From Candidatus Limnocylindria bacterium (GTDB lineage: Bacteria; Patescibacteriota; Saccharimonadia; Saccharimonadales; JAGQNK01), in assembly GCA_035489815.1 (NCBI GenBank), contig DATHJH010000018.1, positions 73,931 to 137,930 of the forward strand: DNA of 64,000 bases. The letters run 5' to 3'. Below are positions 10,404 through 64,000 of the stretch, piece after piece. A model generated the notes under the pieces. The model was not told the DNA's origin. It did no database searches and saw only the letters and a program-made list of their open reading frames with translations. The position numbers and the translations under genes are program-made. Position 1 is the first letter of the stretch, and each line of letters starts with the position of its first letter.

Positions 10404-10510
10404 GTATATAGGACTTTGGCGCTTGAAAGGAGATGGGTTCGACCTATTTAGGCCGCGTCACCGGCAGTATACAGATCAGTGTCTGTGCGGTGCTAGAATA
10501 GCCATATGAA

Positions 10511-10972
10511 ATGGGTTCAATGAAACTTCAGATTAGTACTACCGGTGCCGGGCAGACCGAAGCCATAGCAGAAAAGATCGGCAGGGCTCTACGCGGCGGT
10601 GAGGTGATAGAACTTGTCAGTGATCTGGGGGGTGGCAAAACCACGTTTACCCGCGGCCTGGCCCGCGGCGCAGGTAGCCCTGACCGGGTGGCCAGCCCGA
10701 CTTTTACCATTAGTAAGGTATACCGGGGCACAAACCTGGAAATTCACCATTTTGATTTTTACCGCCTGGCAGACGCCGGCCTGATGGAGCACGAGCTGCA
10801 TGATGTGATCGGTGATCCGGGAGTGGTAGTGGTTGTAGAGTGGGGCGATGTGGTGGCTCATGTGCTACCGGACGATCGGCTGACTATTCAGATCAGGCAT
10901 ACTGGCGATGATAGCCGCGGGTTTGAGCTGTCCCATCCCGAAGAGTTGACTTACCTTGTGGAGGGCCTATGA
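10511..10972 (+). CDS. tsaE: tRNA t6A37 biosynthesis protein TsaE (YjeE)
   Basis: P-loop VSDLGGGKTTFTRGLARG, ~150 aa; stop overlaps the tsaB start. Confidence 0.85.
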   Translation: MGSMKLQISTTGAGQTEAIAEKIGRALRGGEVIELVSDLGGGKTTFTRGLARGAGSPDRVASPTFTISKVYRGTNLEIHHFDFYRLADAGLMEHELHDVIGDPGVVVVVEWGDVVAHVLPDDRLTIQIRHTGDDSRGFELSHPEELTYLVEGL

Positions 10973-11367: not shown

Positions 11368-11390
11368 CCGTAATCGCGAGCCGGGTTCAT

Positions 11391-11420
11391 AGAACCTATC
11401 CAAGATCTTGGATAGGTTCT
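11391..11420. repeat. 30-bp perfect palindrome AGAACCTATCCAAGATC|TTGGATAGGTTCT; minimal member of the TIR repeat family
   Basis: Read directly; the same ~23-bp arm recurs as terminal inverted repeats at 32021-32090 and 57001-57182. Confidence 0.65.
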
Positions 11421-11422
11421 TA

Positions 11423-14269: not shown

Positions 14270-14541
14270 TCCTTCATCCTCCAGATTTTTGCACCAAATA
14301 ACACCATTGAACCCATCACAAAACTCTTCCCCACTGCAAACCCTACCTGGTGCACTATATGACTGTTTTGCTTCGCAGAGTAGCTACGGCTACTCTTTGT
14401 CACAAGAACAGCCATATGGCACTACCAGGACAGGCTTTTCGTATTTGGGAGGAGTTTTGCAATGGGTTCATAGAAGTACGTCTTCTAGGATTTCTGGCAT
14501 CCAGTAGGCCCTAAAGTACCGTCTGCCGTATACTAGACAGT

Positions 14542-17540: not shown

Positions 17541-17660
17541 GCGTCGAGGTGTAATGGTCAGGTAGCTGAAGTGCTGGCAAAACAAGTTTGCCCATCACTT
17601 CTAGCTACCTGACCAAGCCCTCTCCTCTACAAATTCGAGAATCCTCTCTCGAATTTGGAC
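17541..17660. repeat. tRNA-upstream conserved structured element, copy 1: ~60-nt imperfect hairpin with core TGGCAAAACAAGTTTGCC, box ACCAAGCCCTCTCCTCTACAAA, small hairpin TTCGAGA-ATCC-TCTCGAA
   Basis: Same architecture directly 5' of tRNA-Pro(CGG), tRNA-His and tRNA-Arg(CCG); outer stems differ but stay complementary. Confidence 0.6.
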
Positions 17661-23999: not shown

Positions 24000-25154
24000 G
24001 TGGCTGTAGCGACAACCCATCCCAGCGCAGTCGCTGACGCGGGCTCTAAGCTTACGTTTGCTCAGCATGTGTACGAGCTGCGCAAGCGCCTGATGTGGTC
24101 GCTATTGTTTGTGGGGATTGGTGCCGGCATAGGCTATGCCCTGAATGACGCCATCCTGACCATTTTGCAGCATCCTTTGCATGAAAAGCTTTACTACACG
24201 ACGCCTACCGGGGCCTTCAGTTTCATTATAAAAGTCTGTTGTGTGTTTGGGTTTGTGGTGTCGCTGCCGGTGGTGGTGTATCAGGTTTTTGGCTTTTTTG
24301 GACCGCTCCTGCCGGTCCGGACCCGGCGGTCATTTGTGCTGTATAGTTTTCTGTCGGTATTTCTGGCATTGATGGGGGTCGCTTTTGCGTACTTTGTCAG
24401 CCTGCCGGCCTCGCTGCGTTTCCTGGTAAACTTCGGCAGCGGCAGCGGTAACATCCAGGCGCTCATCACCGCGGATGAGTATTTCAACTTTGTGCTAACC
24501 TACATTGCCGGTTTTGCGGCACTTTTCCAGTTGCCGCTGGTTGTAACTTTCATAAACAAAATCAAGCCGCTAAAACCAACGCAGCTGCTGGGCTATACGC
24601 GCTATGTGATCCTGGGCAGTTTTATTGTGTCGGCAATCATAACACCTACGCCTGACCCTTTGAACCAGGCGCTTATGGCCGGTCCGATCATCCTGCTGTA
24701 CTTTTTCTCTGTCGGCGTGGTAGCCGTGGCCAATCGGGCCCGGCGCCGTAAGAACTCAGCCAAAACCGGTCTGAGTCAGAGAAAAAGATTTTGGATGCGT
24801 TCTAAGGCGGAGCCAGTCGTGCCCGAACTGTCAGCAGCCAGCATAGAAGCAGTACTCGCCGACGAAGATTCCCTGCGTCCGTTCAGTCCAACAGCACCAA
24901 CAGTACCAGCATTACCAGTGGCGCCGGTACCTACTCAACCGGTGGGCCTTGAGATCCGCCCGCTCGGCCGGGTGAGTGTCCAGGGGCCTGCTCCCCGGCG
25001 CATGGTCTCTGACGTCGTGCGTCCGTCGGGACGCAATCAACCCCTGGCTCCCTTTGCCCGGTCACAGCCGGCAAGTCCAGTGGTGCCACGGACTGCTCCC
25101 CGTCCCATGCGCATGAGAGTAATATCTGATTTTATTCCGGCTACGGAGCAGTAG
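24000..25154 (+). CDS. tatC: Twin-arginine translocase TatC with a ~130-aa Pro/Ala/Val-rich C-terminal extension
   Basis: Six TM segments with TatC motifs in the first ~250 aa; then a low-complexity P/A/V/R-rich tail; GTG start. Confidence 0.85.
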   Translation: MAVATTHPSAVADAGSKLTFAQHVYELRKRLMWSLLFVGIGAGIGYALNDAILTILQHPLHEKLYYTTPTGAFSFIIKVCCVFGFVVSLPVVVYQVFGFFGPLLPVRTRRSFVLYSFLSVFLALMGVAFAYFVSLPASLRFLVNFGSGSGNIQALITADEYFNFVLTYIAGFAALFQLPLVVTFINKIKPLKPTQLLGYTRYVILGSFIVSAIITPTPDPLNQALMAGPIILLYFFSVGVVAVANRARRRKNSAKTGLSQRKRFWMRSKAEPVVPELSAASIEAVLADEDSLRPFSPTAPTVPALPVAPVPTQPVGLEIRPLGRVSVQGPAPRRMVSDVVRPSGRNQPLAPFARSQPASPVVPRTAPRPMRMRVISDFIPATEQ

Positions 25155-26447: not shown

Positions 26448-26607
26448 GAGTCGACGTGTGATGGTGGGGTGACCAATTTGCCGGCAAAACAAGTTTGCCC
26501 GGCAAATGCGCTCACCCCACCAAGCCCTCTCCTCTCAAAATCGCGAATCCTCTCGCGTTTTTGGCTTTTATCTGTCCAAACAGCCGGCAAGCGGCTTGGT
26601 TTGGGGT
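26448..26607. repeat. tRNA-upstream conserved structured element, copy 2 (long hairpin GGTGGGGTGACCAATTTGCCGGCAAAACAAGTTTGCCCGGCAAATGCGCTCACCCCACC, box CAAGCCCTCTCCTCTCAAAA, hairpin TCGCGA-ATCC-TCTCGCG-TTTTT) plus distal hairpin GTCCAAACAGCCGGCAAGCGGCTTGGTTTGGGG
   Basis: Directly abuts the 5' end of tRNA-Pro(CGG); same architecture as copies at 17541, 29996 and 61337. Confidence 0.6.
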
Positions 26608-27334: not shown

Positions 27335-27443
27335 ACATAAACCGACAAAACGTACCACCAAATGGTCCGGCCGGACCATTTGGTGGTACGTTTTTAGGGG
27401 TGGGTCAGGGGGGAAGGTTCGGGATGGGTGCTAAGGTGTTAGA

Positions 27444-29995: not shown

Positions 29996-30110
29996 TCGTC
30001 GGCGTGTAATGGTTGGGTAGCCAATTTGTCGGCAAAACAAGTTTGCCCGACAAAAAAGGCTACCCAACCAAGCCGCCTCCTCTACAAAATCGCGAATCCT
30101 CTCGCAATTT
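29996..30110. repeat. tRNA-upstream conserved structured element, copy 3 (hairpin GGTTGGGTAGCCAATTTGTCGGCAAAACAAGTTTGCCCGACAAAAAAGGCTACCCAACC, box AAGCCGCCTCCTCTACAAAA, hairpin TCGCGAATCCTCTCGCA-TTTT)
   Basis: Directly abuts the 5' end of tRNA-His; stems covary relative to copies 1 and 2. Confidence 0.6.
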
Positions 30111-30159
30111 TGGCTGGAAACTGTCAAGCAGCAAAGCTGCTTGACTTGAAAAACTGAGT

Positions 30160-30372: not shown

Positions 30373-30418
30373 TCGACTGTTAACAAATATACACGATCGT
30401 GTATATTTGTTAACAGTC
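30373..30418. repeat. 46-bp perfect palindrome (CGACTGTTAACAAATATACACGA|TCGTGTATATTTGTTAACAGTCG) flanked by 8-bp direct repeats TCTAATGA (30355-30362 and 30434-30441)
   Basis: Read directly; located 12 nt past the reconstructed rdgB stop; the second direct repeat overlaps the stop codon. Confidence 0.7.
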
Positions 30419-30429
30419 GAAGGGCGGTA

Positions 30430-30979: not shown

Positions 30980-31127
30980 AGGTAGAATGGTACAGCATTG
31001 TTGCAGGGGTTAGAACCATTTTAATAAGTTACGCTGTATAGAAATGTTCTGGGTGTTCATCATAATAAAGAGCATTAAGGATTCGAACTAAAATAACAGA
31101 TACAGCAAACTATAGTGGCTTGCCTAT

Positions 31128-31738: not shown

Positions 31739-32023
31739 GTGCTTGGAGAGCTATACCATGGTGTGTTTTTGGGAAGTAACTACGAAAAGAATCTGAGCAA
31801 TCTTAACCGTTTCCTGACACTGCCACGCCTGGAAATCCTGCATATAGATGAGTCAACAGCTAAACTGTTTGGTGAGATCGCAACCGAACTAAGGCGCGCG
31901 GGCCGTCCAATGCAACAAAATGATATATGGATTGCGGCCTTATGCAAGCAGTATGACTACAAACTTGCCACCAACGATACTGGCTTTGAGAATGTTTTAG
32001 GCCTGGAAGTTATTGTCTTTTAG
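31739..32023 (+). pseudogene. PIN-domain VapC toxin, C-terminal portion only
   Basis: ELYHGVFLGSNYEKNLSNLNRFL...HIDESTAKLFGEIATELRRAGRPMQQNDIWIAA...LATNDTGFENV matches the VapC C-terminal half; the N-terminal acidic core and the antitoxin are absent. Confidence 0.5.
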
Positions 32024-32090
32024 AGCCCATCCAAGATCTTTTCTCCTTGCCGTGGTCGGGGTCAGAGGAAAAGATTTTGGATGGGCTCTT
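32021..32090. repeat. MITE-like element, 70 bp: TIRs TAGAGCCCATCCAAGATCTTTTC / GAAAAGATTTTGGATGGGCTCTTA around a 26-nt core
   Basis: Arms near-identical to the 11391 palindrome and the 57001-57182 element; core matches the outer core of the 57-kb copy. Confidence 0.55.
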
Positions 32091-32119
32091 AAGAACCACC
32101 CGCGTGTATACTGAGGCCT

Positions 32120-32560: not shown

Positions 32561-32754
32561 TCTTATATCAAGCTGATACAATTTATACCAGATGACTCAG
32601 AACCCATTTCAACCCTCACCATCCGGCCTGAAATCATCCAGGCTTGGCCCAAATCTGCCTGAGGCTAGTCAACGTACCTACGGGTATGCCTCCTCACCTC
32701 AAACAGATTTTGACTCAAGCCTGGAGCAATTTCAGCCTGGAAGGGAGAATTGAA

Positions 32755-34488
32755 ATGGGTTCTAATATTGTTAAAACGCTGGGCCTCATGCGCAGCCTCA
32801 GACCCCTGATTGTCGCGAATGTGGTGGTGGCCGCGATTGTCGGCGGTCTGACCGCCTTTTTGCCGTTTTCGATCAAGTTGGTACTGGATAAGCTGATCAA
32901 CTCATTGGATTCGGGGATAACCCTGCAGGATATCCTGCTGGGGCCATTGCTGATCTGGCTGGCTCTCCGGGTTACTTTGATTATTGCCGAGTATGTCCAT
33001 AACTTTGTGTGGGATCGGCTGATGCCGCGGGCGATTGCTTTGCTGCGGGAAATTACCTACGAAAAGTCACTTAGTTTGTCGCTGGAATACTACGAAAAGG
33101 TCCGCGTGGGCGAGATCACCCACCTGACCATGAACGCCCCGTTAGAGTTTATGCCGGAGTTTTTGCGGGAAATGAGCGAGAACATGCTGCCTAAACTGAG
33201 CGCTATCACGGTCGCGTTGGTGCTGCTGGCTGGCATTTCGCCGTCGGCGGCGCTGGTTGCTTTTTTGGCTTTTGCTGTACTGCTCGCCATTAATTATCAC
33301 AAACTCAAGCTCACCAAAGTTTTGCGATACGAACGGAACGAACACGTCAAGGAAATGAACGGCTACGTAAATGAGGGGTATTCGTTGGTCCGGCACCTGT
33401 TTGCCATGGGTGAACTACGGGCCCGGAGCGGCTATGTCCGGGAAAAGTCCCAGTCGATCATCAAGATCGCTGATCGGTTGCATGGGCTGGAGCGGCGGTA
33501 TAACGTGATTTTTGGCATCATCAACTTGAGTGTGTTCTTTGCGGTGTTTGTGCTGACGATCAACGAGATACTGCGGGGCCGTCAATCGCCGTCAATTATC
33601 CCAATGATCGCCGTATATCTGGGCCTGTTCACCGAATCAGCCCTGGCCTTTAGCAGATTCCTGGGCCGGGCTGCTGACGTAGAAGCCACGCAGCAACAGC
33701 TCCATGAGCTGCTGGCCCAGACGACTTCAGTTATCGATCGGCCGGATGCCAAGCCACTGAAGAGTATACAGACGGTTGAGCTCCGGGATGTGTACTTTGC
33801 CTACGACAAAAACGAGGCTCTTAGGGGTGTCAGCTTCAAGGTCGAAAAGGGCCAAAAGCTGGCCTTGATCGGTATGAGCGGGGCAGGCAAGAGCACTATC
33901 ATCAAACTGCTGCTGCGGTTCTATGATGTCGACAGCGGAGCCATCCTGATCAATGGAGAGGACATTCGGAACTATGCCCAAGAGGACGTGCGGCGATGCT
34001 TCGGCACAGTGCTGCAAGACGTGGCCTTATTTAACGATACGGTGGAGGAAAACGTCCGGATGGTAAAGCCCAAAGCATCTGATAGTGAAGTCAAAAAGGC
34101 CGCAGAGTCAGCCCACGCAACCGCCTTTATTCAGAATCTGCCAGAAGGTTTTAAGACTGTTGTGGGTGAAAGGGGGGTAAAGCTCAGCGGCGGTCAACAG
34201 CAGCGTATAGCCATTGCCCGGGCCATGCTGCGTAAACCAACGGCTGTCATCCTGGACGAAGCAACCAGCGCCCTGGATACGGAAAGCGAACGGGCAGTCC
34301 AGGCCGGCCTAGAAGAACTCCTGGAAGGCAGGCTCAGTATTGTGATCGCCCATCGCCTCAGCACCGTGCGGAACGCAGACACTATAGTGGTACTGGAAAA
34401 CGGCCAGGTAGCAGAAATCGACAATCACGCCGGCTTGCTCAAACGCCAAGGCTACTACGCCCGGCTGGTAAAAATGCAGGCTGCTTAA
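32755..34488 (+). CDS. ABC exporter, fused TMD-NBD (MsbA-like type I exporter)
   Basis: Six N-terminal TM segments; Walker A GMSGAGKST, signature LSGGQQQRIAIARA, Walker B ILDEATSALD; start chosen at ATG 32755 with SD GGAAGGGAG. Confidence 0.85.
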   Translation: MGSNIVKTLGLMRSLRPLIVANVVVAAIVGGLTAFLPFSIKLVLDKLINSLDSGITLQDILLGPLLIWLALRVTLIIAEYVHNFVWDRLMPRAIALLREITYEKSLSLSLEYYEKVRVGEITHLTMNAPLEFMPEFLREMSENMLPKLSAITVALVLLAGISPSAALVAFLAFAVLLAINYHKLKLTKVLRYERNEHVKEMNGYVNEGYSLVRHLFAMGELRARSGYVREKSQSIIKIADRLHGLERRYNVIFGIINLSVFFAVFVLTINEILRGRQSPSIIPMIAVYLGLFTESALAFSRFLGRAADVEATQQQLHELLAQTTSVIDRPDAKPLKSIQTVELRDVYFAYDKNEALRGVSFKVEKGQKLALIGMSGAGKSTIIKLLLRFYDVDSGAILINGEDIRNYAQEDVRRCFGTVLQDVALFNDTVEENVRMVKPKASDSEVKKAAESAHATAFIQNLPEGFKTVVGERGVKLSGGQQQRIAIARAMLRKPTAVILDEATSALDTESERAVQAGLEELLEGRLSIVIAHRLSTVRNADTIVVLENGQVAEIDNHAGLLKRQGYYARLVKMQAA

Positions 34489-43708: not shown

Positions 43709-43843
43709 GGGGCCGGCTCACCCTCCTATGCGTGTTTTAAAGGCTCCAAGCGAAGTGCAGCCGGGTTAATTTTTGACCCTGTGGCAAAAATTAACCGCGC
43801 GAAACGGTCTTTACAAACACGCATAGGAGGGTGAGCCGGCCGG
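43709..43843. repeat. Nested inverted repeat: perfect 27-bp arms GGCCGGCTCACCCTCCTATGCGTGTTT/AAACACGCATAGGAGGGTGAGCCGGCC enclosing an inner 12-bp inverted repeat GGTTAATTTTTG/CAAAAATTAACC
   Basis: Read directly; begins 14 nt after the GH10 stop. Confidence 0.65.
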
Positions 43844-43920
43844 CTTCATAGCAGCTACATACTATTTGCGACAAAACCTGACCCTCAAAACCCCAACCCT
43901 CCACTGTCATTCCCAACTAG

Positions 43921-44000
43921 ACCCAGGAATCCAGTAGATACAAGTAATTAACTTTTCTTTATTGACTGGATACCCGGGTCTGGCCCGGTATGACACGATT
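43921..44000. repeat. Structured intergenic repeat, family member B (ATCCAGTAGATA ... TTGACTGGAT, hairpin CCGGG-TCTGG-CCCGG, ATGACACG)
   Basis: Same architecture as 13841-13925 and 59733-59815. Confidence 0.5.
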
Positions 44001-44150
44001 GGAGGTTTTGAGATTCAGGTCGACAAAGCGTTGTATAAATTGTATTGCTATTGCTTTTTAGGGTTATTTAGGATATTATCTAAACTAAAGTTTTAGTTTT
44101 AGGAACTTGAGAGATTAAGCTATATTAACGGGTGGTGCGAGGAGTGTGGA

Positions 44151-46400
44151 ATGAAGCGCATTAAATTTAATGGTCTTTTGGCGATGACCCTGTTAACACT
44201 GGTTGCCCTGGGCAGTTCACTGGTCCGCCAGGCGACTGTGACTGCGGCTGTATTGCCAAATGCACCTACCGGACAGGTGTCTTTTACCTTTGACGACGGG
44301 TTTTCTACCTTTGCCACTAAGGCGGCTCCAGCTTTGGCGGCCCATAACCAGAAGGGCACATTGTACCTGTCAACCGGCTGTGTTGACGGCACAGGAACCT
44401 GCCGCCAGAACGTTGACCCGGCCGCAGAGTACCTGACCTGGGACCAGGTGCAGACACTTAAGAATACTTATGGGTGGGAAATTGGCGCCCACACTGCCAA
44501 CCACCCGCTTATGACCGAAATTACGCCAGCTCAGCTGGAGGCAGAATTTACTGCCAGCAATCAAGCTTTTGCGGCGCATGGTTTGGCACCGACAGCCTTT
44601 GCCACACCTTATGGCGACTACAACAGTTCAGTAGTAGCAGCCATTGCCAGGAACTACACCTCACACCGTGGTTTTCATGACATCGGCTACAATGCCTGGC
44701 CAGCCAATCGCTACCTCTTGCAGGTACAGCAGGTTCAGGCCGGCGTGAGTGTTGCCACCGTCAAGGGCTATATTGATCAAGCCAAGGCTAACAACACCTG
44801 GTTGGTGCTGGTTTTCCACGATATACAGGACAACCCTAGCAGTGACCCTGAAGACTATCAGTTTAGTACTGCTAACCTGGAAGCTGTTGCAGCCTATGCC
44901 CAGGCCCAGAATATCAAAAATGTCAACGTGACCGAAGGTCTGACCACTGGCCAGAGTAACCTGCTGCCTAACAGTGGCTTTGCTAACGGCCTCGGTAGTG
45001 GCTGGAAGACCAACACTCCCGCTAACGTCGTAGCCAACACCGCCGGCAACGGCGCCGTGGCTTCACCGGCTAACTCTGTTGCTATGACTGCCGCCGCCGA
45101 TCAGAACGTCTACCTGTTCTCGCCGACTATCAATATAGACCCCACCCGCCGCTACTGGCTCTCTGCCTACGTAAATACAGTGACTCGTACGAGCGGCGAA
45201 GTAGCCTTCTACGTAGACGAATACGACACCGCCGGCAACTGGATCAGCGGCCAGTATAAGCAAGCTCTGACGGTGCCGGAGTTCAAAGACGCTTCGTTTA
45301 TCTATCAGCCTACCTCTGCGCAGGTTAAAAAGGCCAGCGTGCAAGTAATTGTCACCGCTGGCTCGGGTATCACGACTTACATTGACAACGTCGAATGGTA
45401 TGGCCTGGACGCTGCTGCCGACCCAGATCCTAACCCCACGCCTACGAACCTTAACCTGCTCCCTAATAGTGGCTTCAATAACGGCGTAGGTGATGGATGG
45501 ACAACTGACAATGCTGCAGCTATAGCCAGCGACACCGCCAATCACGGCAGCCCGGCCAGCCCCTCGCACTCTGTCAAGCTGACGGCACCTGCATCTGGCA
45601 ATGCCCACTTGTTTGCGCCAAAGGTAAATGTACAGTCCGGCACGACATATATTGTTAAAGCCTTCCTGAACATCCTGACCCTGAACACCGGCGAAGTAGC
45701 CTTCTACGTAGACGAATACGACACCGCCGGCAACTGGATCAGCGGCCAGTACTTGTTTGCAAAGCGCAATGAAGGTGAAGAGCAGGTAGAGTTTACCTAC
45801 ACTCCTACCTCAAGTAACGTAGCCCGGGCCCAGTTGCAGGTCATCCTGACCGGCAACTCCGGCATCAACGGCTACCTGGATGAGGTTCAGTTCCTGGCAC
45901 CTCAGGGCACGCCTCCTCCGGTTGTTGATCCACCCGCGCCCACACCAACCACGACAGTTCTAGAGACTGCTTTTGCTAACGGCATTGCCGATGGCTGGCA
46001 CACCGATACTGCGACTGCCATTACCGCAGACGCAGCTGGTAACGGCGCTGCCGACGAACCACAGCACTCTGTCAAGTTGGTATCTGGTACTGCTAACGCT
46101 CAGCTGTTTTCACCAAACGTGAACGTGAGCGTAGGCACTACCTACACCCTTGAGAGCTATCTGAATATTGTGCAGTTGGCAAGCGGCGAAGTAGCCTTCT
46201 ACGTAGACGAATACGACACCGCCGGCAACTGGATCAGCGGCCAGTACTTGTACGCCCGCCGTACCGCTGGTACGGTAAACGTCAGCTTCAATTACACGCC
46301 TACTTCGGCTGCAGTTGCTCAGGCGAGCCTGCAGGTCATCCTGACAGGCAACTCTGGCATTACTGCCTACCTGGACAGTATCAAGTGGTTAAGCGCCTAA
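44151..46400 (+). CDS. Secreted polysaccharide deacetylase (CE4/NodB domain) followed by three tandem ~160-aa carbohydrate-binding-module-like repeats
   Basis: Signal peptide; CE4 motifs FTFDDGF, LTWDQV, GWEIGAHTANHP; three repeats each containing GEVAFYVDEYDTAGNWISGQY, encoded by 62-nt identical tracts at 45195, 45700 and 46185. Confidence 0.85.
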   Translation: MKRIKFNGLLAMTLLTLVALGSSLVRQATVTAAVLPNAPTGQVSFTFDDGFSTFATKAAPALAAHNQKGTLYLSTGCVDGTGTCRQNVDPAAEYLTWDQVQTLKNTYGWEIGAHTANHPLMTEITPAQLEAEFTASNQAFAAHGLAPTAFATPYGDYNSSVVAAIARNYTSHRGFHDIGYNAWPANRYLLQVQQVQAGVSVATVKGYIDQAKANNTWLVLVFHDIQDNPSSDPEDYQFSTANLEAVAAYAQAQNIKNVNVTEGLTTGQSNLLPNSGFANGLGSGWKTNTPANVVANTAGNGAVASPANSVAMTAAADQNVYLFSPTINIDPTRRYWLSAYVNTVTRTSGEVAFYVDEYDTAGNWISGQYKQALTVPEFKDASFIYQPTSAQVKKASVQVIVTAGSGITTYIDNVEWYGLDAAADPDPNPTPTNLNLLPNSGFNNGVGDGWTTDNAAAIASDTANHGSPASPSHSVKLTAPASGNAHLFAPKVNVQSGTTYIVKAFLNILTLNTGEVAFYVDEYDTAGNWISGQYLFAKRNEGEEQVEFTYTPTSSNVARAQLQVILTGNSGINGYLDEVQFLAPQGTPPPVVDPPAPTPTTTVLETAFANGIADGWHTDTATAITADAAGNGAADEPQHSVKLVSGTANAQLFSPNVNVSVGTTYTLESYLNIVQLASGEVAFYVDEYDTAGNWISGQYLYARRTAGTVNVSFNYTPTSAAVAQASLQVILTGNSGITAYLDSIKWLSA

Positions 46401-46863
46401 GGCGTCGCACCACATTTAGAACCCATCTCATATCTCCATCCCATCCCAAAACCGCCCATTCCGGCGTCAATCCGCCCCAGCTTCCCGGCCGTACCTACAG
46501 GTACGCTCTGGAAAACTGGAACGAATCGCTGCTTGCTTTCTAAAGGAAATGGATCAATTTTGGCATCGGGAGCGAGATATGAAATGGGTTCATAGAAGTT
46601 CTCGGCCAAGCCGGGGACTTTTATTTTATGTTCCTATACCCCATGAAACAGGTTTCAGGGGGACCCCGGGTCTTGGTACCCGGCACGAACCTGTCGCCCA
46701 AAGGGGCTAAAGTAATATGATAAAATAAGCTTTACAATATAACATAAAAGTAGTAATATATAAGTTAGAGGGATCTCGATGATCTTCTGGTTGATCGCTT
46801 TGGCGGCCTTCCAGGGGTCACATCGGGTCCTTTATTTTATTAACCGATCTAAGGAGTAATGGG

Positions 46864-51638: not shown

Positions 51639-51889
51639 GTGCGGGTCTCCGTTTTGTTACAGATAGTATACCAGTTTAAGCAGTTCACGTCTGGCCCGGG
51701 CAGAGAACTATCCTGGACCTATAGACATCACACTTTGTCTTGCCATCAGAGCTGGCTGATGATCGCTGAACTAAAACTGCTCTTTGCGACTGAAGCATAT
51801 CCATAGATATGTTGAAGGAGTAAAGAGCAGTTTTAGTCAGTGAGGGCAGTCAGATTGGGGCAAGTCAGAGTGTGATGTCTATAAGTTCG

Positions 51890-53904: not shown

Positions 53905-54636
53905 CTATAAGTCATTTTGAACGTTGAAGGCTTCTCTGACGAGCTGTGCGCTGACAGCGTAACGGGCATCCATGGCAACGACCGCCGCAACCTCTGGAAG
54001 AGTTGCGGCGTCATTTTCGTCCAGCATATAACCACAGCCTAATACAAAAGCAGCCCCACTGAACTCTGCCCCAATTCGAATATCCTCCACGCCGGCTGCG
54101 TGACAGATAGCGCCGTAAGTCATAGCACGACACCCCAATTCTTCGTGAACAAAATCTGCACCAGTCCATCGGGCTGACCAGTCGTCAACAACGGCGGGGA
54201 CTTTGGGCTCTTCGGCAGATGCTTCGACCCTGTGTCTGACTGCCCGCTGGACAGATTCAACATAATTTAATCCAGAGACAACCCTATCTTGCTCAGTGGG
54301 CGTTGCGAGGCGCTTGTCAAGTATGGGCAGGACGGTAGCGGTAAGCCACACTTCGCGGTCGCGTGCAACGGGGTCTGTAAGGTATTCGCCATAACATTCT
54401 CGTAGGGTGTGGACCAGTCCGCTTTCTGCACTCATATAGTCTCCTGAAATTGTAATAACCAAGGAGTTACCTTGGTTTTTGGCTTCGGCAAAATTCCTGG
54501 CAGGAACCCTGAAGAAGGTATCACTTAGCATACGCTTTTGTCCTGAAATGTCCAATAAATTATTTCGAATTTTAATGAACAATCCGAAGACTACGACTTC
54601 GAGAAAATAAGGAAGAGTATCATATTTTATGAACAC
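53905..54636 (-). CDS. Hypothetical protein
   Basis: 243-aa ORF; the real start is probably internal; no recognised domain. Confidence 0.4.
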   Translation of the reverse strand: MFIKYDTLPYFLEVVVFGLFIKIRNNLLDISGQKRMLSDTFFRVPARNFAEAKNQGNSLVITISGDYMSAESGLVHTLRECYGEYLTDPVARDREVWLTATVLPILDKRLATPTEQDRVVSGLNYVESVQRAVRHRVEASAEEPKVPAVVDDWSARWTGADFVHEELGCRAMTYGAICHAAGVEDIRIGAEFSGAAFVLGCGYMLDENDAATLPEVAAVVAMDARYAVSAQLVREAFNVQNDL

Positions 54637-54841
54637 CAGCTGCCTTTCGGCATGAAACTATACTGCATGCCATGCCTCCTGAAACTAGCTGGGGCCCGAC
54701 GGAAAAAACTTGTGCCCAATCACTCCGCAGACGATACGTGGAAGGCCGGGTATACACAAGTTTTGTAAGATCAGTTATTCGAAGCGGTAGATTCTTACGG
54801 GAACACAAAACTTAAATCGTCGTCTACTATCCATTGCCTGT

Positions 54842-55615
54842 ATGCTGAACTTACGCATGAAAACAACAAGGCACACAATAAGTATCAACGGTTTGGACGT
54901 GGCTTATTACCAGTTTGGCCACGGAACACCACTGCTATTTTTGCATGGCGGACGGGTGCGGGCACTGACATTCAAGCGTTCACTCGAACAGTTGTCAAAG
55001 CGGTATACAATCATTGCGCCGGACATTCCAGGCTATGGGGCTTCAGCAACCCCAAAAGGCGAGTGGTCATACTCGGATTATGCGGTATTTTTTAATAGCT
55101 TTCTAGACAAACTGGAATTGGACGACGTTACTCTCGTAGGCTACTCAATGGGTGGTGGCATCGCGTTCAACCTTGCCGCAATAAACAGTCAAGTTGCCCG
55201 GTTGGTGCTTGTAGACTCCTCGGGGCTACATGCCGTTAACAAAAGATCCAACCCTCATGATTTGCGTCGCCTTTCGTTCTACCTTAAGCATCCGCCCTAC
55301 TACAGTACGTTAGCTGTACTCCTGAGGGAATATTTGCAATTTATATGGAAACATAGGGGTGACTATTCACACATGCAGCACATACGTCAGTCGTGCCGCA
55401 AAACATCGTATGAAAAAGGGCTCCGGAAGGTTTCCGTTCCCACGCTTCTAGTATGGGCGCAGGACGACCGGATTATCCCAGTCGCAACTGCAAACGTATT
55501 CCAAAAGCGTATTCCAAAAGCCGTACTGAAAACCGTTAAAGGGAACCACGACTGGCCGCTTTATAAGCCTGCGCCCCTGGTAAAAAGTATCCTAACTTGG
55601 ACCAAAACTACTTAA
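54842..55615 (+). CDS. Alpha/beta hydrolase
   Basis: HGG oxyanion motif (LLFLHGG), nucleophile elbow GYSMGG, C-terminal His; 257 aa. Confidence 0.75.
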   Translation: MLNLRMKTTRHTISINGLDVAYYQFGHGTPLLFLHGGRVRALTFKRSLEQLSKRYTIIAPDIPGYGASATPKGEWSYSDYAVFFNSFLDKLELDDVTLVGYSMGGGIAFNLAAINSQVARLVLVDSSGLHAVNKRSNPHDLRRLSFYLKHPPYYSTLAVLLREYLQFIWKHRGDYSHMQHIRQSCRKTSYEKGLRKVSVPTLLVWAQDDRIIPVATANVFQKRIPKAVLKTVKGNHDWPLYKPAPLVKSILTWTKTT

Positions 55616-55648
55616 TGTAGTATCGTATCGGTCCTGATATAAAGTAAA

Positions 55649-56728
55649 ATGAGGCGTATGTCTTCTGGCTCACTTGGCGGCAAGCATGACACTGGATACG
55701 GTCTATATGGTAGACCCGACTATTACAATGCACTAGCTGAAAAGATCGGCAAAACAAAAAAAGGTGATCGTATTGTTGTTGCGACTATGACCCTCAGCCT
55801 TAAGGACCCGTTTGTGCAGCGAATAATGCATGAGCTTCACACAGCAAGCAAACGTGGTGCTTTTGTGTACATGCTCGTAGACGCTCTTACTTTTATTGCC
55901 TACAAAGGATTCATGCCAAAGTATCCATTGCATTTAAAGCAATGGGCTACGTCGGCTCGATCTCGGGAAGTGCAGTCCTTGCAAAAGTTGGCCAAGCTTG
56001 GCGGCTACTATTCAATACTTAACTGGCCGGAGAGGTCGCAAGTAAATCCGTTCGCGCATCGCTCACATCTTAAGTTTGCCGTTGTGGGAAATTCTGTGTT
56101 CCTGGGAGGCGCCAACCTTACCACCTCCACGGTCACAGACTGCATCGTGGGATGGGAAGATGCCGCGAGCGCAGATTGGTTGTTCGGACAAGCCACGGAG
56201 ATTGCGGCAGAAAAGGATGTAAGTAGAGCCTTGGATTTGCATGATGTGGTTTTCCCGATCTCTGATTCCTCGCAGATTTTATTGGATGCCGGCTTGAAAA
56301 GGCAGTCAATGATTCTTCAAAGAGCGCTTGGGCTTGTGGACGCCGCGAAGCGAGAAGTGTGGATTACGAGTCAATTCTTCCCTAACGGCCGTATGGCTCG
56401 TCACCTGTCAGAAGCTATATCGCGCGGTGTGCATGTCAGGGCCTTTTATAACAGCCCCGCCAAGCATAACCCGCTGATTGCAGCCTGGCAGCGTGCTGTA
56501 ATCGCTACCGCCCAAAGAGCTTTATCACCAGATTTGTTTACTAACCAGCTGCCAAGCCAATCTGATTTTTTACATGCAAAAGTCCTCGCTACAGAACGCA
56601 GTGTCATGATCGGCAGCCATAACTATCTAGATAAAGGCGTTATGTTCGGCACGGCTGAAATCGCATTACAGAGTAATGATCCTAGATTGCACAAACAGAC
56701 TATGGATATGCTCAAGAAACTCGCGTAA
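55649..56728 (+). CDS. Phospholipase D-family protein with two HKD motifs (cardiolipin-synthase/PLD-like)
   Basis: HKD motifs HLKFAVVGNSVFLGGANL and HAKVLATERSVMIGSHNY. Confidence 0.75.
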   Translation: MRRMSSGSLGGKHDTGYGLYGRPDYYNALAEKIGKTKKGDRIVVATMTLSLKDPFVQRIMHELHTASKRGAFVYMLVDALTFIAYKGFMPKYPLHLKQWATSARSREVQSLQKLAKLGGYYSILNWPERSQVNPFAHRSHLKFAVVGNSVFLGGANLTTSTVTDCIVGWEDAASADWLFGQATEIAAEKDVSRALDLHDVVFPISDSSQILLDAGLKRQSMILQRALGLVDAAKREVWITSQFFPNGRMARHLSEAISRGVHVRAFYNSPAKHNPLIAAWQRAVIATAQRALSPDLFTNQLPSQSDFLHAKVLATERSVMIGSHNYLDKGVMFGTAEIALQSNDPRLHKQTMDMLKKLA

Positions 56729-57000
56729 CAATTGAACTACGCATCCTAGTACCCCGTCAACCATCCCTTGACGGGTCTGCCCTCCCAGAACCAGCACCAA
56801 ACAGCCCGGCTGCCCTGAAGGGTAGCCAAGGCTACGCTTCAGGAACATCCAGACTGCCTGGCACTACTTCTGGAAAGGCATCTAGCTGTCAGAGTATGGT
56901 TGACGGGGTACTAGTGCGCTTCCGTAAAGATGTCCGCAATCGCTTTTATCTTTCCGCTTTGCACAAGGATCATAGACCAGTCGGACCGCTCAATAATCCT

Positions 57001-57182
57001 TAGAACCTATCCAGGATCTTTTCACCACGGCCGAGAGCAGTTTTCGGGTGTGAGCCGGCTGTTTTTTGATTTGAAAGGTACCTGTAAGAAGGTACCTTTC
57101 GGAGCGATAGTCTATCAGAAGGCAGGTGGATTGCGTCTGAAAGGTGGTCGGAGTCAGAGGAAGAGATCCTGGATGGGTTCTT
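57001..57182. repeat. MITE-like element, 182 bp: TIRs TAGAACCTATCCAGGATCTTTTC / AAGAGATCCTGGATGGGTTCTTA with a structured core that includes the palindrome AAAGGTACCT-GTAAGAA-GGTACCTTT
   Basis: The TIRs match the 11391 palindrome and the 32021-32090 element; the outer core (CACCACGG...GGTGGTCGGAGTCAGAGG) is shared with the 32-kb copy. Confidence 0.55.
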
Positions 57183-57393
57183 AGAACCCGGAATTGGTTC
57201 TGTAGTAGGTTACCTCTCTATTCAAACGCTTTTAATTTGGACTTGGAGAACAATAGTTGTCTAATCATCATTGTTCTGCTTCTCGTCCTTTGTTGCGCTG
57301 TTTGCATCAGCTTCGTCTGGCTCCACCCGTATTAAATTCTATAATCGTCCCATATATCTCTGGGACGGAATCCGGGAAATAATACCTGTGGCT

Positions 57394-59964: not shown

Positions 59965-60324
59965 ATGGCAGATACTATTTTTGACGCTGAATGTCCAACC
60001 CGTGAGGTGCTGGAAAACATTTCCAAAAAATGGGCAGCAGTAGCACTGTGCCTGCTGAGCGAGCGACCTCACCGCTTTAGCGAACTCCTGCATGGTATGG
60101 GCGGCGTATCGCAAAAGGTTCTGACCCAAACGCTGCGCAACCTGGAACGCCACGGACTGATTACCAGAACAGTAAACGCTACGACCGTGCCGATATCTGT
60201 TATTTATGCGCTGACCGGGCTGGGTGAGTCGCTGGCCGAGCCCATCGGCGCCATGCGTCGCTGGACCGAACAGCACATTGATGAGGTGGTCCGCGCCCAA
60301 AAAGTTTACGATACCAGGGAATGA
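59965..60324 (+). CDS. HxlR-family transcriptional regulator
   Basis: ISKKWAAVALCLLSERPHRFSELLHGMGGVSQKVLTQTLRNLERHGLITR wHTH; start taken at ATG 59965. Confidence 0.75.
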   Translation: MADTIFDAECPTREVLENISKKWAAVALCLLSERPHRFSELLHGMGGVSQKVLTQTLRNLERHGLITRTVNATTVPISVIYALTGLGESLAEPIGAMRRWTEQHIDEVVRAQKVYDTRE

Positions 60325-60550
60325 CCCAGCATCTGTTACGAGGCCAGCACCCCACTCCACCTACTCCTACAGGTCTAACCAACAAGCTCATCTTGCCGAA
60401 GGCTTAGGTGCAGTGGGGTTGCTATAGATAGCCCGGAGTCCCTAGACCATTCGCGCGGTTCAAGTCCTTGCTCAAATATGACAGCATCCGCGCCACCTAG
60501 AAAGGACGTATTACCTTGGGCACGTATCCAGGCTGTTTCTGGCAGCCCTA

Positions 60551-61129
60551 TCACAGGACGCGTATTTTCTTCATGGTACTGCCTGATTCGCTCTTCCCTG
60601 GTTCACCTTGATGGTCCTCTATGAGTGGGCCAGAAACAAAGTGTGGATTGATTTGAAAATCGACTAAGCCAATGGCCTCAAAATTGCCAAGCTCTACAAT
60701 CGGCATATCATTAGTAGTCATGATGGTTGGACAGGCGACATTGCTGCCCGCGCTTGTGCCCATATAGCCAGCGCCATGTTTAACTTTTTGTTTAATGGCG
60801 TCAAGCAAATCGTTGTCCTGGAGCGCTTTGAGCAGCCGGAATGTGTTACCGCCTCCAATAAAGATTGCCTTTACGTCATGCGCCTCTATGGCCCTGCGAG
60901 GGTCAGGCGTTCGATGCAAAGAAATAAATGTCCCGCCGACAGTCGGGTCAAGTCCGGTAAAGAACGCCTGAGCTGTATCGGCGTAGCCGTCCAAGTCGTA
61001 CTCAGCGTATGGGGCAAACAAAACATGACCAGGCGGGCAGCTATCCAGAAACTCTTTTACGGTTGCCCGACAATGCTCCAGGTATTCCTCATCTCCTGAG
61101 TACGAACTACTGATTAGTAGTAAGTTCAT
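60551..61129 (-). CDS. pepE: Peptidase E (S51 family, alpha-aspartyl dipeptidase)
   Basis: FIGGGNTFRLL and catalytic Ser in GTSAGSNV; 192 aa. Confidence 0.8.
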   Translation of the reverse strand: MNLLLISSSYSGDEEYLEHCRATVKEFLDSCPPGHVLFAPYAEYDLDGYADTAQAFFTGLDPTVGGTFISLHRTPDPRRAIEAHDVKAIFIGGGNTFRLLKALQDNDLLDAIKQKVKHGAGYMGTSAGSNVACPTIMTTNDMPIVELGNFEAIGLVDFQINPHFVSGPLIEDHQGEPGKSESGSTMKKIRVL

Positions 61130-61185
61130 ATGCCAACTATAGCAAAGAAAACCTTATAACGAAGCCTCTTGAAACATAAGCAAAA

Positions 61186-61262
61186 TGGTGCCCGTGGTAG
61201 GATTCGAACCTACGACTTTCTGCTCCGAAGGCAGACGCTCTAATCCACTGAGCTACACGGGC
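61186..61262 (-). tRNA. tRNA-Arg (anticodon TCG), CCA encoded
   Basis: Manual cloverleaf: acceptor GCCCGTG/CACGGGC, anticodon stem TCTGC/GCAGA, loop CTTCGGA, 77 nt. Confidence 0.8.
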
Positions 61263-61336
61263 AAGTGATGCACGAGTTATTGTACCAGATATCACCCCTG
61301 TTTGTTATAATTACTCTGACTGCAGCCAGTCCCGTT

Positions 61337-61464
61337 GACCAAACCAAGCAGCTTTAGCTGCTGTTTGGGCGACGGAAGAGGAGAGGGCTTGGTTGGGTAG
61401 CTAGAAGTGATGGGCAAACTTGTTTTGCCATCACTTCAGCTGCCGAACCATCACACCTCGACGC
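61337..61464. repeat. tRNA-upstream conserved structured element, copy 4, on the + strand directly 5' of tRNA-Arg(CCG)
   Basis: Reads as the reverse complement of copies 1-3 in window coordinates but has the same orientation relative to its tRNA. Confidence 0.6.
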
Positions 61465-61541
61465 GCACCCGTAGCTCAGCTGGATAGAGCGTTGGTTTCC
61501 GGTACCAAAGGTCGTAGGTTCAAATCCTATCGGGTGTACCA
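61465..61541 (+). tRNA. tRNA-Arg (anticodon CCG), CCA encoded
   Basis: Manual cloverleaf: acceptor GCACCCG/CGGGTGT, anticodon loop TTCCGGT, T-loop TTCAAAT, 77 nt. Confidence 0.9.
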
Positions 61542-61645
61542 AATCAACGCATCAGATTGTTTTAGTTCTAGTTCTATCACTCTATAGTTTGCATCATCTG
61601 TTATTTTAGTTCGAATCCCGATTGCTCTTTGATACAATTGCTTAT

Positions 61646-62032
61646 ATGAAACAACTTGAACAGACATACATCATTCATGCACCGGTTGAAAAAGTATGGC
61701 AAGCCCTCACAGACGCTGCCACGGCAGAACAATGGGGCGCAGGTCCGGCAAAAATTGATGCGACCGTGGGTGGTGAATATAGTTTTTGGGATGGAGATAT
61801 TCATGGTGTATTTACGAAACTTGAGCCAAATACCAGAATTGAGCAAGACTGGTACGGCCATGACAATCCAGCTTGGAAATATAACGTAGTATTTGAGTTT
61901 GAAGGCGATGATAAGGTCACAAATGTTAAGTTGACATACTCCGGCGATATTCTTGATGAACAAAAAGACATTACTGACTGGCAAGATTACTATTTTGACC
62001 CAATTAAGAAACTGCTGGAGCGGCCAGAATAG
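61646..62032 (+). CDS. SRPBCC-superfamily protein (AHSA1/polyketide-cyclase-like)
   Basis: MKQLEQTYIIHAPVEKVWQALTD...WGAG pattern typical of the SRPBCC/Aha1 domain; 128 aa from ATG 61646. Confidence 0.7.
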   Translation: MKQLEQTYIIHAPVEKVWQALTDAATAEQWGAGPAKIDATVGGEYSFWDGDIHGVFTKLEPNTRIEQDWYGHDNPAWKYNVVFEFEGDDKVTNVKLTYSGDILDEQKDITDWQDYYFDPIKKLLERPE

Positions 62033-62149
62033 TTCTAACCTGTGCCAAAGCGCTGTACCATTTCAACGCAACAGATTACATTAGTTCGAGAATTTAAACT
62101 CATTTCAAAGTCTTATCTGTTATTCAGTTCGAATCTCGATAGGTGTCAA

Positions 62150-62917
62150 TTATTTTGACTGAACGGATTCCAATACCGCTTCTGCGTCAAAAGGTGGCCC
62201 CCAAACTGTTGCAGCCTTACCTGAATTAATGACTGTTGTCACATCTTTGTGACTTGATATCATGGTCAAGTTTTCGCCTAGCATTTGCTGATAGAGTGTC
62301 CAGCTTGGATTAAAGAGTATTGGACGTTTAGCTAGAACAAACAATGAGCTGTCTCCAACTGTATCACCCATGTGTACATCAAGATGGCTCGTATCGCCAT
62401 TTCGAGCATCTGCGTATTCAGTTGCTTTATCAATACTATGAGCCTCGTCCGTGAACAGTCCTTCACGAGCTACATAGGTACTTCCCATTAATGCCACAAA
62501 ACCCAAATCTTCAGTAAATGGACCCATCAGCCACTCTGGCATAAGTGAAATTGAAACTACATTATGAGTTGCGTGCAGTTTTTCTATAATTGCTGTGGTT
62601 ATATTCCAACGCCTATGTCGTTGCTGATTTGCAACAATACGAGCTGCTTCATTTAGTTGACTTACCGATTTTCCAGGTACCTGTTCAATAAAGAAACGAA
62701 CGAGTTGACCTAAATGGGCAGTATATTTTTGTTCGGTATTGTCGTTTTTCCATTCTTGCTTGGCTGCGGTTATTTCAAAGGGCATTGGATCAAATACAGA
62801 TTGTTGTGATAACCAATCTGTATAGGCTTCGAGTACAGTCATTTTGAAAACAGTGCCGTCCAAATCAAAAGTTGCATCGGGCAAATCTGGATTAATACCG
62901 CCATTAAGCTCAATCAT
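62150..62917 (-). CDS. Hypothetical protein, possibly HAD-superfamily hydrolase
   Basis: N-terminal FDLDGTVF resembles HAD motif I (DxDGT); otherwise unassigned; 255 aa. Confidence 0.35.
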   Translation of the reverse strand: MIELNGGINPDLPDATFDLDGTVFKMTVLEAYTDWLSQQSVFDPMPFEITAAKQEWKNDNTEQKYTAHLGQLVRFFIEQVPGKSVSQLNEAARIVANQQRHRRWNITTAIIEKLHATHNVVSISLMPEWLMGPFTEDLGFVALMGSTYVAREGLFTDEAHSIDKATEYADARNGDTSHLDVHMGDTVGDSSLFVLAKRPILFNPSWTLYQQMLGENLTMISSHKDVTTVINSGKAATVWGPPFDAEAVLESVQSK

Positions 62918-63058
62918 TCTCTAAATATAGCAAAGAAGCCTCCTCTAACTATAAGCACAACTGAGAAATAAAGTTCTAACCTGTGCCAAAGCGCTGTACC
63001 ATTTCGCTTATGTTTAAACCTATCAGATTTAGGTTTTTTTGTTTGATATGATGTACTT

Positions 63059-63517
63059 ATGCGAACTATCTATCGCGATATCGTTGCCGGTTTAGTAGCC
63101 TCCAAAGACAACAAGTTCCTGTTCGGCATGAAAGATCCGAAAGGTGGCGGAGTTTATGCCGACTGTTGGCATACTCCTGGAGGTGGTATTGAAGAAGGAG
63201 AGACTCAACTCGAAGCGCTGGCAAGAGAGATGCAGGAAGAAATGGGACTTGATACTTCGAAAGCAAAAGTTACATTACTTGATGATAAAGGCGAAGGCGA
63301 ATCAGAAAAGAAGCTGAAGGACACTTACGAAGTAGTGAAAGTTAAAATGAAGTTTTTTGTATACAAAATTGACTTTGATAAAAATGCTGAAGATATTGAT
63401 GTTAAACCTGGTGATGACATAGAGAAGCTGTCTTGGGTCGACTCCGCTAGGCTAAAAGACGCCAAACTCACTCCGCCGTCGGTTGAACTTTTTAGTAGGC
63501 TTGGCTGGTTGAAGTAG
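63059..63517 (+). CDS. NUDIX hydrolase
   Basis: NUDIX box GGGIEEGETQLEALAREMQEEMG. Confidence 0.8.
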   Translation: MRTIYRDIVAGLVASKDNKFLFGMKDPKGGGVYADCWHTPGGGIEEGETQLEALAREMQEEMGLDTSKAKVTLLDDKGEGESEKKLKDTYEVVKVKMKFFVYKIDFDKNAEDIDVKPGDDIEKLSWVDSARLKDAKLTPPSVELFSRLGWLK

Positions 63518-63673
63518 AGACCAGGATGGTTCTATTTTGTATATCCTGCTGTACCAAATTCATATGACACAAAATAACACCTCTCAAGGTGAGACCTTAT
63601 AAAACCTTATAAAAATAGGGGTAGTAAGCATAAGTAATTTGCATTCATACGTATGATTTGCTAAAGTATACGT

Positions 63674-63916
63674 ATGAAAACGAAACTTACACTGAGCGTT
63701 GACCAAGATCTGGTGCAGTTTGCACGGCAGCAGGCACGTGCTCATAAAAAATCCGTTTCAGGTATGTTTTCGGAGTTTCTGACACATCGCAGAGCACAGG
63801 TAGACAAAGTAGCCGTGCCAAGTATTGCCAGCATGGCAGGCTCTCTGAAACACTATGCTGTTGACGACTCAAAAGAAGCTATTCGCGCAGCTTATGCCAA
63901 AAAATATTCTCGTTGA
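63674..63916 (+). CDS. Putative type II antitoxin (VapB-like) preceding a PIN toxin
   Basis: 80-aa ORF overlapping the start of a PIN-domain ORF by 23 nt. Confidence 0.5.
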   Translation: MKTKLTLSVDQDLVQFARQQARAHKKSVSGMFSEFLTHRRAQVDKVAVPSIASMAGSLKHYAVDDSKEAIRAAYAKKYSR

Positions 63917-64000
63917 CCTCAACGTTATTTTAGACGTTTTGCTTGAGCGCCGAGGGTTTAAAGCGTCGCAGTCAGTCCTGGAACTGCAGGTATCCAATTC
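63894..64000 (+). CDS. vapC: PIN-domain VapC toxin, N-terminus only (truncated by the window end)
   Basis: MPKNILVDLNVILDVLLERRG: canonical PIN N-terminal strand with the catalytic Asp. Confidence 0.6.
   Translation, partial: MPKNILVDLNVILDVLLERRGFKASQSVLELQVSN

Follow-up and report, generated by a model that had tools for sequence, protein, structure and literature searches.

The 64,000-nucleotide stretch of DNA analysed here, which we call the window, carries the same pair of inverted terminal repeats at three sites between genes: 11391-11420, 32021-32090, and 57001-57182. An earlier note had pointed out these sites, and on direct reading of the sequence all three are present as it described them. 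The first, 22 nt past the stop codon of tsaB, separates that gene from rny on the same strand, the second lies between same-strand PIN (by Pfam) and NUDIX genes, and the third between convergent genes; the suggestion that such copies often sit at convergent gene ends thus applies, among these three, only to the 57001 copy. The organism is labelled Candidatus Limnocylindria at NCBI, and MurB, RNase Y, and TatC of the window match proteins of a MAG so named with 100% identity. The label is probably wrong: the close homologues with plausible names belong to Saccharibacteria or Saccharimonadales (RNase Y at 85-92% and MurB at 66% identity, and TatC), gene content and order match Saccharibacteria contigs, and the host is probably a member of Saccharibacteria (TM7, CPR). 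With genomes of about 1 Mb, Saccharibacteria and other CPR bacteria are generally portrayed as having little mobile DNA.

Copies of the main family in the window

The copy at 57001 is full length with a small extra insert. The element occupies 57003-57180 (178 nt, with its well-folding strand on the plus strand), is flanked by TTA at 57000-57002 and again at 57181-57183, and matches the profile of the main family with an E-value of 6.6e-40 (nhmmer). Its ends are shared with the other two sites, its outer core (ACCACGGCCG... on the left and ...TGGTCGGAGTCAGAGG on the right) is related to that of the 32021 copy, and it contains the inner palindrome GAAAGGTACC-TGTAAGAA-GGTACCTTTC, all as first reported. 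Short-read contigs of the source organism (L104) have a breakpoint inside this copy.

The other two sites are shortened. At 32023-32088 (plus strand), an internal-deletion copy of 66 nt is flanked by TTA at 32020-32022 and 32089-32091; within 32021-32090, 25-nt arms that are 92% complementary surround a 26-nt core, CTCCTTGCCGTGGTCGGGGTCAGAGG. This copy retains 30 nt on the left and 36 nt on the right, which match the respective ends of full-length copies, and has lost ~98 nt of the hairpin tip, with deletion breakpoints that lie nearly opposite each other in the stem. The remnant at 11392-11419 (site 11389-11422, with ATA on its left and TTA on its right, and assigned to neither strand) consists of 28 nt of terminal repeats only, fused at their common AGATCT, which is self-complementary and therefore occurs as a direct repeat in both arms. 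As the earlier note had seen, the abutting repeats form a perfect 30-nt palindrome at 11391-11420, AGAACCTATCCAAGATCTTGGATAGGTTCT.

The same note listed exactly three copies, and the window holds more: five main-family loci and four loci of a sister family described below. One of the two additional main-family loci is a 51-nt deletion copy inside tatC (24752-24802, plus strand; site 24749-24805), with TAA on both sides. The other is a degenerate right-arm remnant at 27395-27434 (plus strand), which ends ...GGGTGC-TAA-G, adjoins a 48-nt perfect palindrome, and shares 65% identity with the right arm of the copy at 32021, which serves as reference for that repeat family. A 19-nt end pattern with up to three mismatches has eight matches in the window against 0.04 expected, and none of 100 shuffled sequences reaches eight.

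The short forms of 28, 51, and 66 nt are each unique, and each is related by sequence to a master form of ~162-166 nt. The size series originally described as nested cores is better understood as one ~165-nt master with independent internal deletions; we infer that the long palindrome is unstable and that each short form is a separate deletion from it.

The 48-nt palindrome beside the remnant, at 27347-27394, is one of two perfect palindromes of this length in the window, the other being at 30373-30420. With AAAA at its start and TTTTT after it, the 27347-27394 palindrome, which three relatives lack, resembles an intrinsic terminator acting in both directions.

Terminal repeats, target duplication, and target preference

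Main-family elements begin with GAACCYATCCARGATCTTTTC and end with GGTTC, in arms of ~21-25 nt that are 92-100% complementary. We oriented 33 curated copies by their interiors and then compared the trinucleotides outside GAACC...GGTTC. The flanks are a direct duplication, TTA/TTA or TAA/TAA, that is perfect in 16 copies and has one mismatch in another 12, and they are palindromic (TTA/TAA) in three, one of which is a pair of abutting elements. Bases that belonged to the inverted repeat should be arranged palindromically; since direct arrangements are the more numerous, the bases here are a target-site duplication, and the outermost T(T/A)A, at first counted within the repeat, lies outside the element. 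With the interior in the same orientation, nine cases have TTA flanks and five have TAA flanks, so the element enters its asymmetric site either way round.

Two other parsings were considered and rejected. A duplication of TA only, one of the two candidates (TA and TTA) put forward at the outset, would imply that the ends are asymmetric in 14 of the 21 full-length copies that entered the comparison, leaving the 3-bp duplication TTA (or TAA) as the candidate that stands. An IS200/IS605-type parsing, with the target on the left only and a fixed orientation, conflicts with the occurrence of TTA and TAA around the same interior orientation. Immediately outside the duplication, at position -4, 44 of 66 ends have a C (left) or a G (right), and the two positions beyond it (-5 and -6) are pyrimidine-rich, giving a preferred target of YYC-TWA-GRR.

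These features recall a known group of transposons. Maize PIF prefers the target CWCTTAGWG, PIF/Harbinger enzymes drive Tourist MITEs, and the IS5-family groups IS1031, IS427, and ISL2 have GA(G/A) ends and 2-4-bp duplications in the ISfinder tables. PIF/Harbinger elements and mPing make a 3-bp TTA/TAA duplication within a 9-bp extended target (PMC2836001), and the IS5 family is the prokaryotic relative of the PIF/Harbinger transposases (PMC12730594).

Copies elsewhere in Saccharibacteria

The earlier note had proposed a wider search for the terminal repeat, and this search located about 40 metagenome loci and three MAG loci at unrelated sites. A 21-nt end pattern matched 51 stretches in the metagenome collection, the ~40 true members among them including 25 with paired ends 80-190 nt apart, many of these at a spacing of 145-190 nt, and one 294-kb contig with five family loci. 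Twelve metagenome loci (L105, L109, L112, L115, L116, L122, L136, L139, L140, L142, L148, and L151) were rejected as chance because they are matches in coding sequences of unrelated low-GC organisms, several of them encoding the motif RFWMGS. The commonest lengths of the metagenome members, measured from AGAACC to GGTTCT, are 164-168 nt; variants of 175-190 nt carry extra side inserts, and rare short forms measure 30, 33, 68, 80, and 94 nt. Over the whole range of 28-190 nt, no copy contains an ORF with a Pfam match. By their interiors the copies divide into subfamilies with little sequence in common and the same layout.

The 57001 copy is 93.5% identical to a metagenome copy (L150) whose flanks are entirely different, and apart from these repeats the metagenome loci have no DNA that can be aligned with the window. 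Copies within one contig differ by roughly 10%, and we therefore make no claim of recent activity; the main family may be old, or may be driven by a rare or lost enzyme.

Three Saccharimonadia MAGs in a 596-Gb genome collection carry real members (L022, L058, and L067). They were found with an 18-nt pattern, AGARCCYATCCARRATCT, that is too degenerate for a collection of this size, and the rest of its 103 matches are almost all single chance matches without a partner end. A scan of viral contigs gave 63 chance matches and none that fits the family profile, and BLAST of the fused ends against plasmids gave no match. Full-text searches found no paper linking Saccharibacteria or other CPR bacteria with MITEs, and the family is an ordinary kind of element that was previously undescribed in this group.

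Presence and absence in related genomes

Contigs of relatives whose RNase Y is 92-94% identical keep the gene order tsaE-tsaB-rny...ymdB-tatA-tatC-(217 aa)-VIT1, which allows filled and empty junctions to be compared. The 28-nt remnant has no counterpart downstream of tsaB in L159, L161, and L162, and the sister-family copy at 14309 is absent upstream of the gene for a metallo-beta-lactamase-fold protein in L161 and L162. At the site of the 27395 remnant, the window has a 110-nt spacer before VIT1, as against 25-28 nt in L231, L161, and L162. The L231 contig, about 80% identical in nucleotide sequence to the window over roughly its 22-31 kb part, is without the copies of the window and has a truncated copy of its own, directly on the TAA stop codon of another ORF. 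In about 113 kb of relatives (the RNase Y contigs and the MurB relatives), nhmmer at E<=1 found no member of either family. The comparison of filled and empty sites thus holds at the level of gene junctions and, for tatC, of protein sequence; a nucleotide-exact empty site with a single CTWAG was not recovered among these relatives, the nearest of which are too diverged. The outcome that the earlier note had named as telling against mobility, three copies only and all at orthologous positions, is not what we see: there are more copies, and those of the window are absent at syntenic sites.

The neighbourhood of murB does not lend itself to a clean empty-site comparison, because SHMT abuts murB in relatives (L158) whereas the window has a 3.5-kb insertion there. 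This insertion, at 53905-57393, contains an unknown 243-aa ORF, an alpha/beta hydrolase, a PLD-like protein, and two hairpin elements.

Insertions at stop codons and within tatC

Both strands of the target CTWAG include a stop codon, and insertion restores TAG or TAA at the junctions. Of the 24 full-length elements examined, 8 have a junction that coincides with the stop codon of a neighbouring ORF of at least 70 aa. Two further cases involve shortened copies: the truncated copy in L231, and the PIN-domain ORF at 31739-32023, whose stop codon TAG is made up of the duplication and the first G of the 32021 element. Insertions exactly at gene ends therefore do no harm and build up in this gene-dense genome. 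Among copies within about 11 nt of a gene end, the transcript of that gene would contain the poorly folding strand in eight and the well-folding strand in four, so that no rule of orientation applies.

One copy lies within a coding sequence. In tatC, the 51-nt copy and one TAA add 54 nt in frame, translated as ...KNSAKTGLSQRKRFWMRS..., after the end of the TatC Pfam domain. The 17-18 inserted residues are absent from all 14 aligned homologues, including the TatC of P0242, which is 75% identical in the alignment and has nearly the same flanking residues without the insert. At the DNA level, alignment with L231 shows a clean gap, and nucleotide similarity ends at 24748, one base before the duplication.

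A strand-biased hairpin

The master form of ~162-166 nt is predicted to fold as a single rod-like hairpin, and to do so much better on one strand than on the other. For the 57001 copy, the predicted RNA fold is -99.1 kcal/mol on the plus strand (z -10.7) and -65.3 kcal/mol on the minus strand, and all 22 distinct full-length copies fold better, by 12-36 kcal/mol, on the strand that is G/T-rich in both arms. On the well-folding strand of seven diverged lineages, we count 67 G·U pairs and 9 A·C single mismatches. In one subfamily, 23 of 68 predicted pairs have changed on both sides with the pairing preserved, and the tip hairpin covaries across subfamilies: GGTACC/GGTACC, GGTAGC/GCTACC, GCGTACC/GGTACGC, and CCCCGA/TCGGGG. 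A cut-and-paste transposon does not account for the strand bias and the compensatory changes in the interior.

A scan of 57001-57182 found no promoter-like motif and no terminator-like motif, and in particular no GC-rich hairpin followed directly by a T-run. By covariance-model search against Rfam, only tRNAs reach the gathering score in the window, and the element has no match at E<=10.

The sister family and other hairpin repeats

The sister family has the termini GAACCCATTTCAAATC and is represented in the window by three full copies and one lone end. The full copies are all on the minus strand: 14309-14469 (161 nt), a rod-like hairpin with termini GAACCCAT[TC]...; 32600-32762 (163 nt), with ends GAACCCATTTCAA...TTGAAATGGGTTC and flanks TCA and TAA, upstream of an ABC transporter gene; and 46419-46591 (173 nt), with flanks TTA and ATA. 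The lone terminal repeat, ATATGAAATGGGTTCAATGAA, at 10504-10524 on the plus strand, overlaps the start of tsaE. Copies elsewhere are found in L117 and L153. Members of this family are 161-176 nt long, and their tip hairpin is similar to that of the main family.

Read outward, the right end provides an ATG (GG-ATG-GGT-TCT) after a purine-rich stretch, AGAGGAAAAG, for example at 32745-32790 in the window and at 7751-7981 in L153. The ORFs of downstream genes extend back through this ATG in three cases, namely the ABC transporter of the window, a 450-aa ORF in L153, and tsaE at the lone end, so that the element may sometimes supply a start codon.

Two further hairpin elements, at 51714-51889 and 56746-56914, have different ends and yet a similar length and tip hairpin. 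The first, a 176-nt repeat, has ends GAMCYTATAGACATC, and its tip hairpin resembles the one in the main family. The second, a distinct element of 169 nt that adjoins the 57001 copy, has the ends C-TA-GTACCCCGTCAACC...GGTTGACGGGGTAC-TA-G, which look like a TA duplication in CTAG in the style of IS630/mariner; its bottom strand has a predicted fold of -124.7 kcal/mol. We also observed a 131-nt hairpin repeat with 27-nt perfect arms at 43711-43841 and one of ~150 nt at 43874-44020, which has a 76%-identical copy in the metagenome locus L146. The hairpin elements of the main and related families come to about 1.6 kb, or 2.5% of the window.

Search for a transposase

Pfam scans of 42 ORFs of the window, comprising every non-overlapping ORF of at least about 170 aa that was not identified otherwise, found only housekeeping or unknown proteins and no transposase domain, in agreement with the earlier note. 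None of the loci fetched has family ends 0.8-1.5 kb apart. Clustering of all ORFs of the Saccharibacteria loci gave no multi-copy transposase-like protein, and yielded only syntenic housekeeping genes and common families such as histidine kinases and ABC transporters. Neither the window nor roughly 0.8 Mb of related DNA yielded a transposase, and the window, the 51 metagenome loci, the ~113 kb of relatives, and the viral and plasmid collections gave no cognate autonomous IS whose ends match. A further 5.6 kb beyond the source contig, added from Logan contigs, contains pilus genes and neither an element nor a transposase.

Other features of the window

Four tRNA genes, Pro-tgg, Pro-cgg, His, and Arg-ccg, are each immediately preceded on the 5' side by a conserved block of ~120 nt with the palindrome GGCAAAACAAGTTTGCC; the four blocks are at 17542-17658, 26449-26565, 29997-30113, and 61377-61464. 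The block likewise stands beside tRNAs in the relatives L230 and L231, and may be a shared tRNA promoter or leader. The region 60000-64000 has a low GC content (0.45), a 34-nt perfect direct repeat (62031-62064 and 62972-63005) that flanks a HAD-hydrolase gene, and tRNA-like fragments that are repeated elsewhere (61582-61630 with 31067-31115); it may be an integrated element. At 44151-46400, three tandem repeats of 495 nt, 71-81% identical, lie in a 749-aa ORF and encode an internally repeated protein.

Discussion

We think it likely that these repeats are a Tourist-like MITE family in Saccharibacteria, and that the three sites that first drew attention are one full-length and two shrunken copies of it. 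The elements are short, lack a transposase gene, have terminal inverted repeats, a 3-bp target duplication, and a target preference, are dispersed to unrelated loci, and differ in presence between relatives, being absent at the matching junctions; the earlier reading of them as non-autonomous transposable elements is borne out by these properties. The mobilising enzyme would be of the IS5 / PIF-Harbinger type, as judged from ends that begin GAA or GAG, a TWA duplication of 3 bp, and a palindromic target that extends beyond it; with no cognate transposase found, these end and target features are the whole basis of the assignment. Such an enzyme would recognise the ~21-bp terminal repeats GAACCYATCCARGATCTTTTC, cut at the GA...TC ends, and insert the element at a staggered 3-nt cut in YYC-TWA-GRR, and repair of the stagger would leave TTA or TAA on both sides. 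Long palindromes are unstable, and loss of the hairpin tip could then produce the remnants of 66, 51, and 28 nt.

In mechanism, the family is closest to the Tourist or IS5 type, and its form most resembles that of the long-hairpin bacterial MITEs Correia, ERIC, and RUP. Like the Tourist MITEs (mPing; PIF/Harbinger) and IS5, it is small and non-coding, with terminal inverted repeats that begin GA(A/G), a 3-bp TTA/TAA duplication, and a target preference that extends ~3 bp to each side (here YYC-TWA-GRR); unlike Tourist, the whole element is one long strand-biased hairpin, and its host belongs to Saccharibacteria (CPR). Correia of Neisseria, ERIC of enterobacteria, and RUP of pneumococcus are similar in size (100-160 nt) and are imperfect palindromes over their whole length, with dispersed intergenic copies, a short A/T-rich duplication, and deletion variants; they fold in RNA and are cut by RNases (PMC10969869, PMC3184786). 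The Saccharibacteria family differs from them in that its sequence is unrelated, its target is different (TA for Correia and RUP), and no IHF site or promoter motifs were seen in it. The 54-nt tatC insertion resembles the Rickettsia palindromic elements (RPE) in being an in-frame palindromic element within a protein gene of a reduced genome; unlike RPE, it is a single in-frame case and a deletion derivative, and most Saccharibacteria copies are intergenic or at stop codons.

The strand bias raises the possibility that the elements, having spread by transposition, now persist as strand-specific structured RNAs maintained by the host or by themselves, perhaps as substrates or decoys of double-strand RNases or as stabilisers of mRNA ends. 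This explanation, which overlaps with the MITE reading, is unlikely in our judgement. The 12-36 kcal/mol advantage of one strand in every full-length copy, the excess of G·U pairs over A·C mismatches in diverged lineages, the pair-keeping changes of one subfamily, and the retention of about 161-176 nt and a similar tip hairpin by interiors with almost no common sequence are all consistent with it, and RNA effects of bacterial MITEs are documented for ERIC and for Correia with RNase III (PMC10969869). Near gene ends, however, the poorly folding strand would be the one transcribed in eight of twelve cases, neither promoter-like nor terminator-like motifs nor an Rfam match were found for the element, none of the copies can be essential given that they are missing from close relatives, and much of the variation may stem from master copies rather than having arisen in place.

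It seems rather improbable, though the strand bias is what suggests it, that the ~165-nt rod is a functional strand-specific nucleic acid, whether an RNA selected at many loci or a single-strand DNA intermediate of transposition. If it were, several Saccharibacteria repeat families with different ends would share a module of the same length and tip hairpin, and the elements would represent a new kind of mobile structured element, not a passive MITE.

Movement of the element in the form of a folded single strand of DNA, by way of a site-specific recombinase as for integron attC sites and IS200/IS605, is very unlikely; TWA would then be the crossover core and no repair duplication. It would fit a strand-specific hairpin that tolerates G·T and not A·C, and a target core, CTWAG, that is fixed and repeated at both junctions. 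However, strictly strand-specific insertion would not yield the nine TTA and five TAA cases with the same interior orientation, perfect terminal repeats of ~21 bp with a 3-bp duplication are the standard marks of a DDE transposase, and the copies are scattered among housekeeping genes and not in an integron-like array, with no integrase in the scanned ORFs and no integrase or Y1 transposase adjoining any copy.

That the repeats are non-mobile host sequences, either conserved transcription terminators or the REP/BIME-type repeats also suggested in the earlier note (a REPIN arrangement included), is hardly credible: they are stable hairpins and often lie at gene ends, but they have no T-run after the hairpin in a genome with a classical hairpin-plus-TTTTT at 27347-27399, they are absent at the matching junctions of relatives and in one case sit inside a coding sequence, and their units are about 165 nt rather than 20-40 nt, with flanking direct duplications and no REP-associated transposase (no Y1_Tnp domain) in the scanned ORFs.

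The main family marks assembly breakpoints, sits exactly on stop codons, and has added 18 codons to tatC, a gene of an essential pathway. Because it differs between related lineages, it is useful as a strain marker and as a source of variation in regulation and in proteins. With its Tourist-type target, TWA in CTWAG, it ties a bacterial MITE to the IS5 / PIF-Harbinger lineage, and the strand-biased fold offers a concrete, testable hypothesis.
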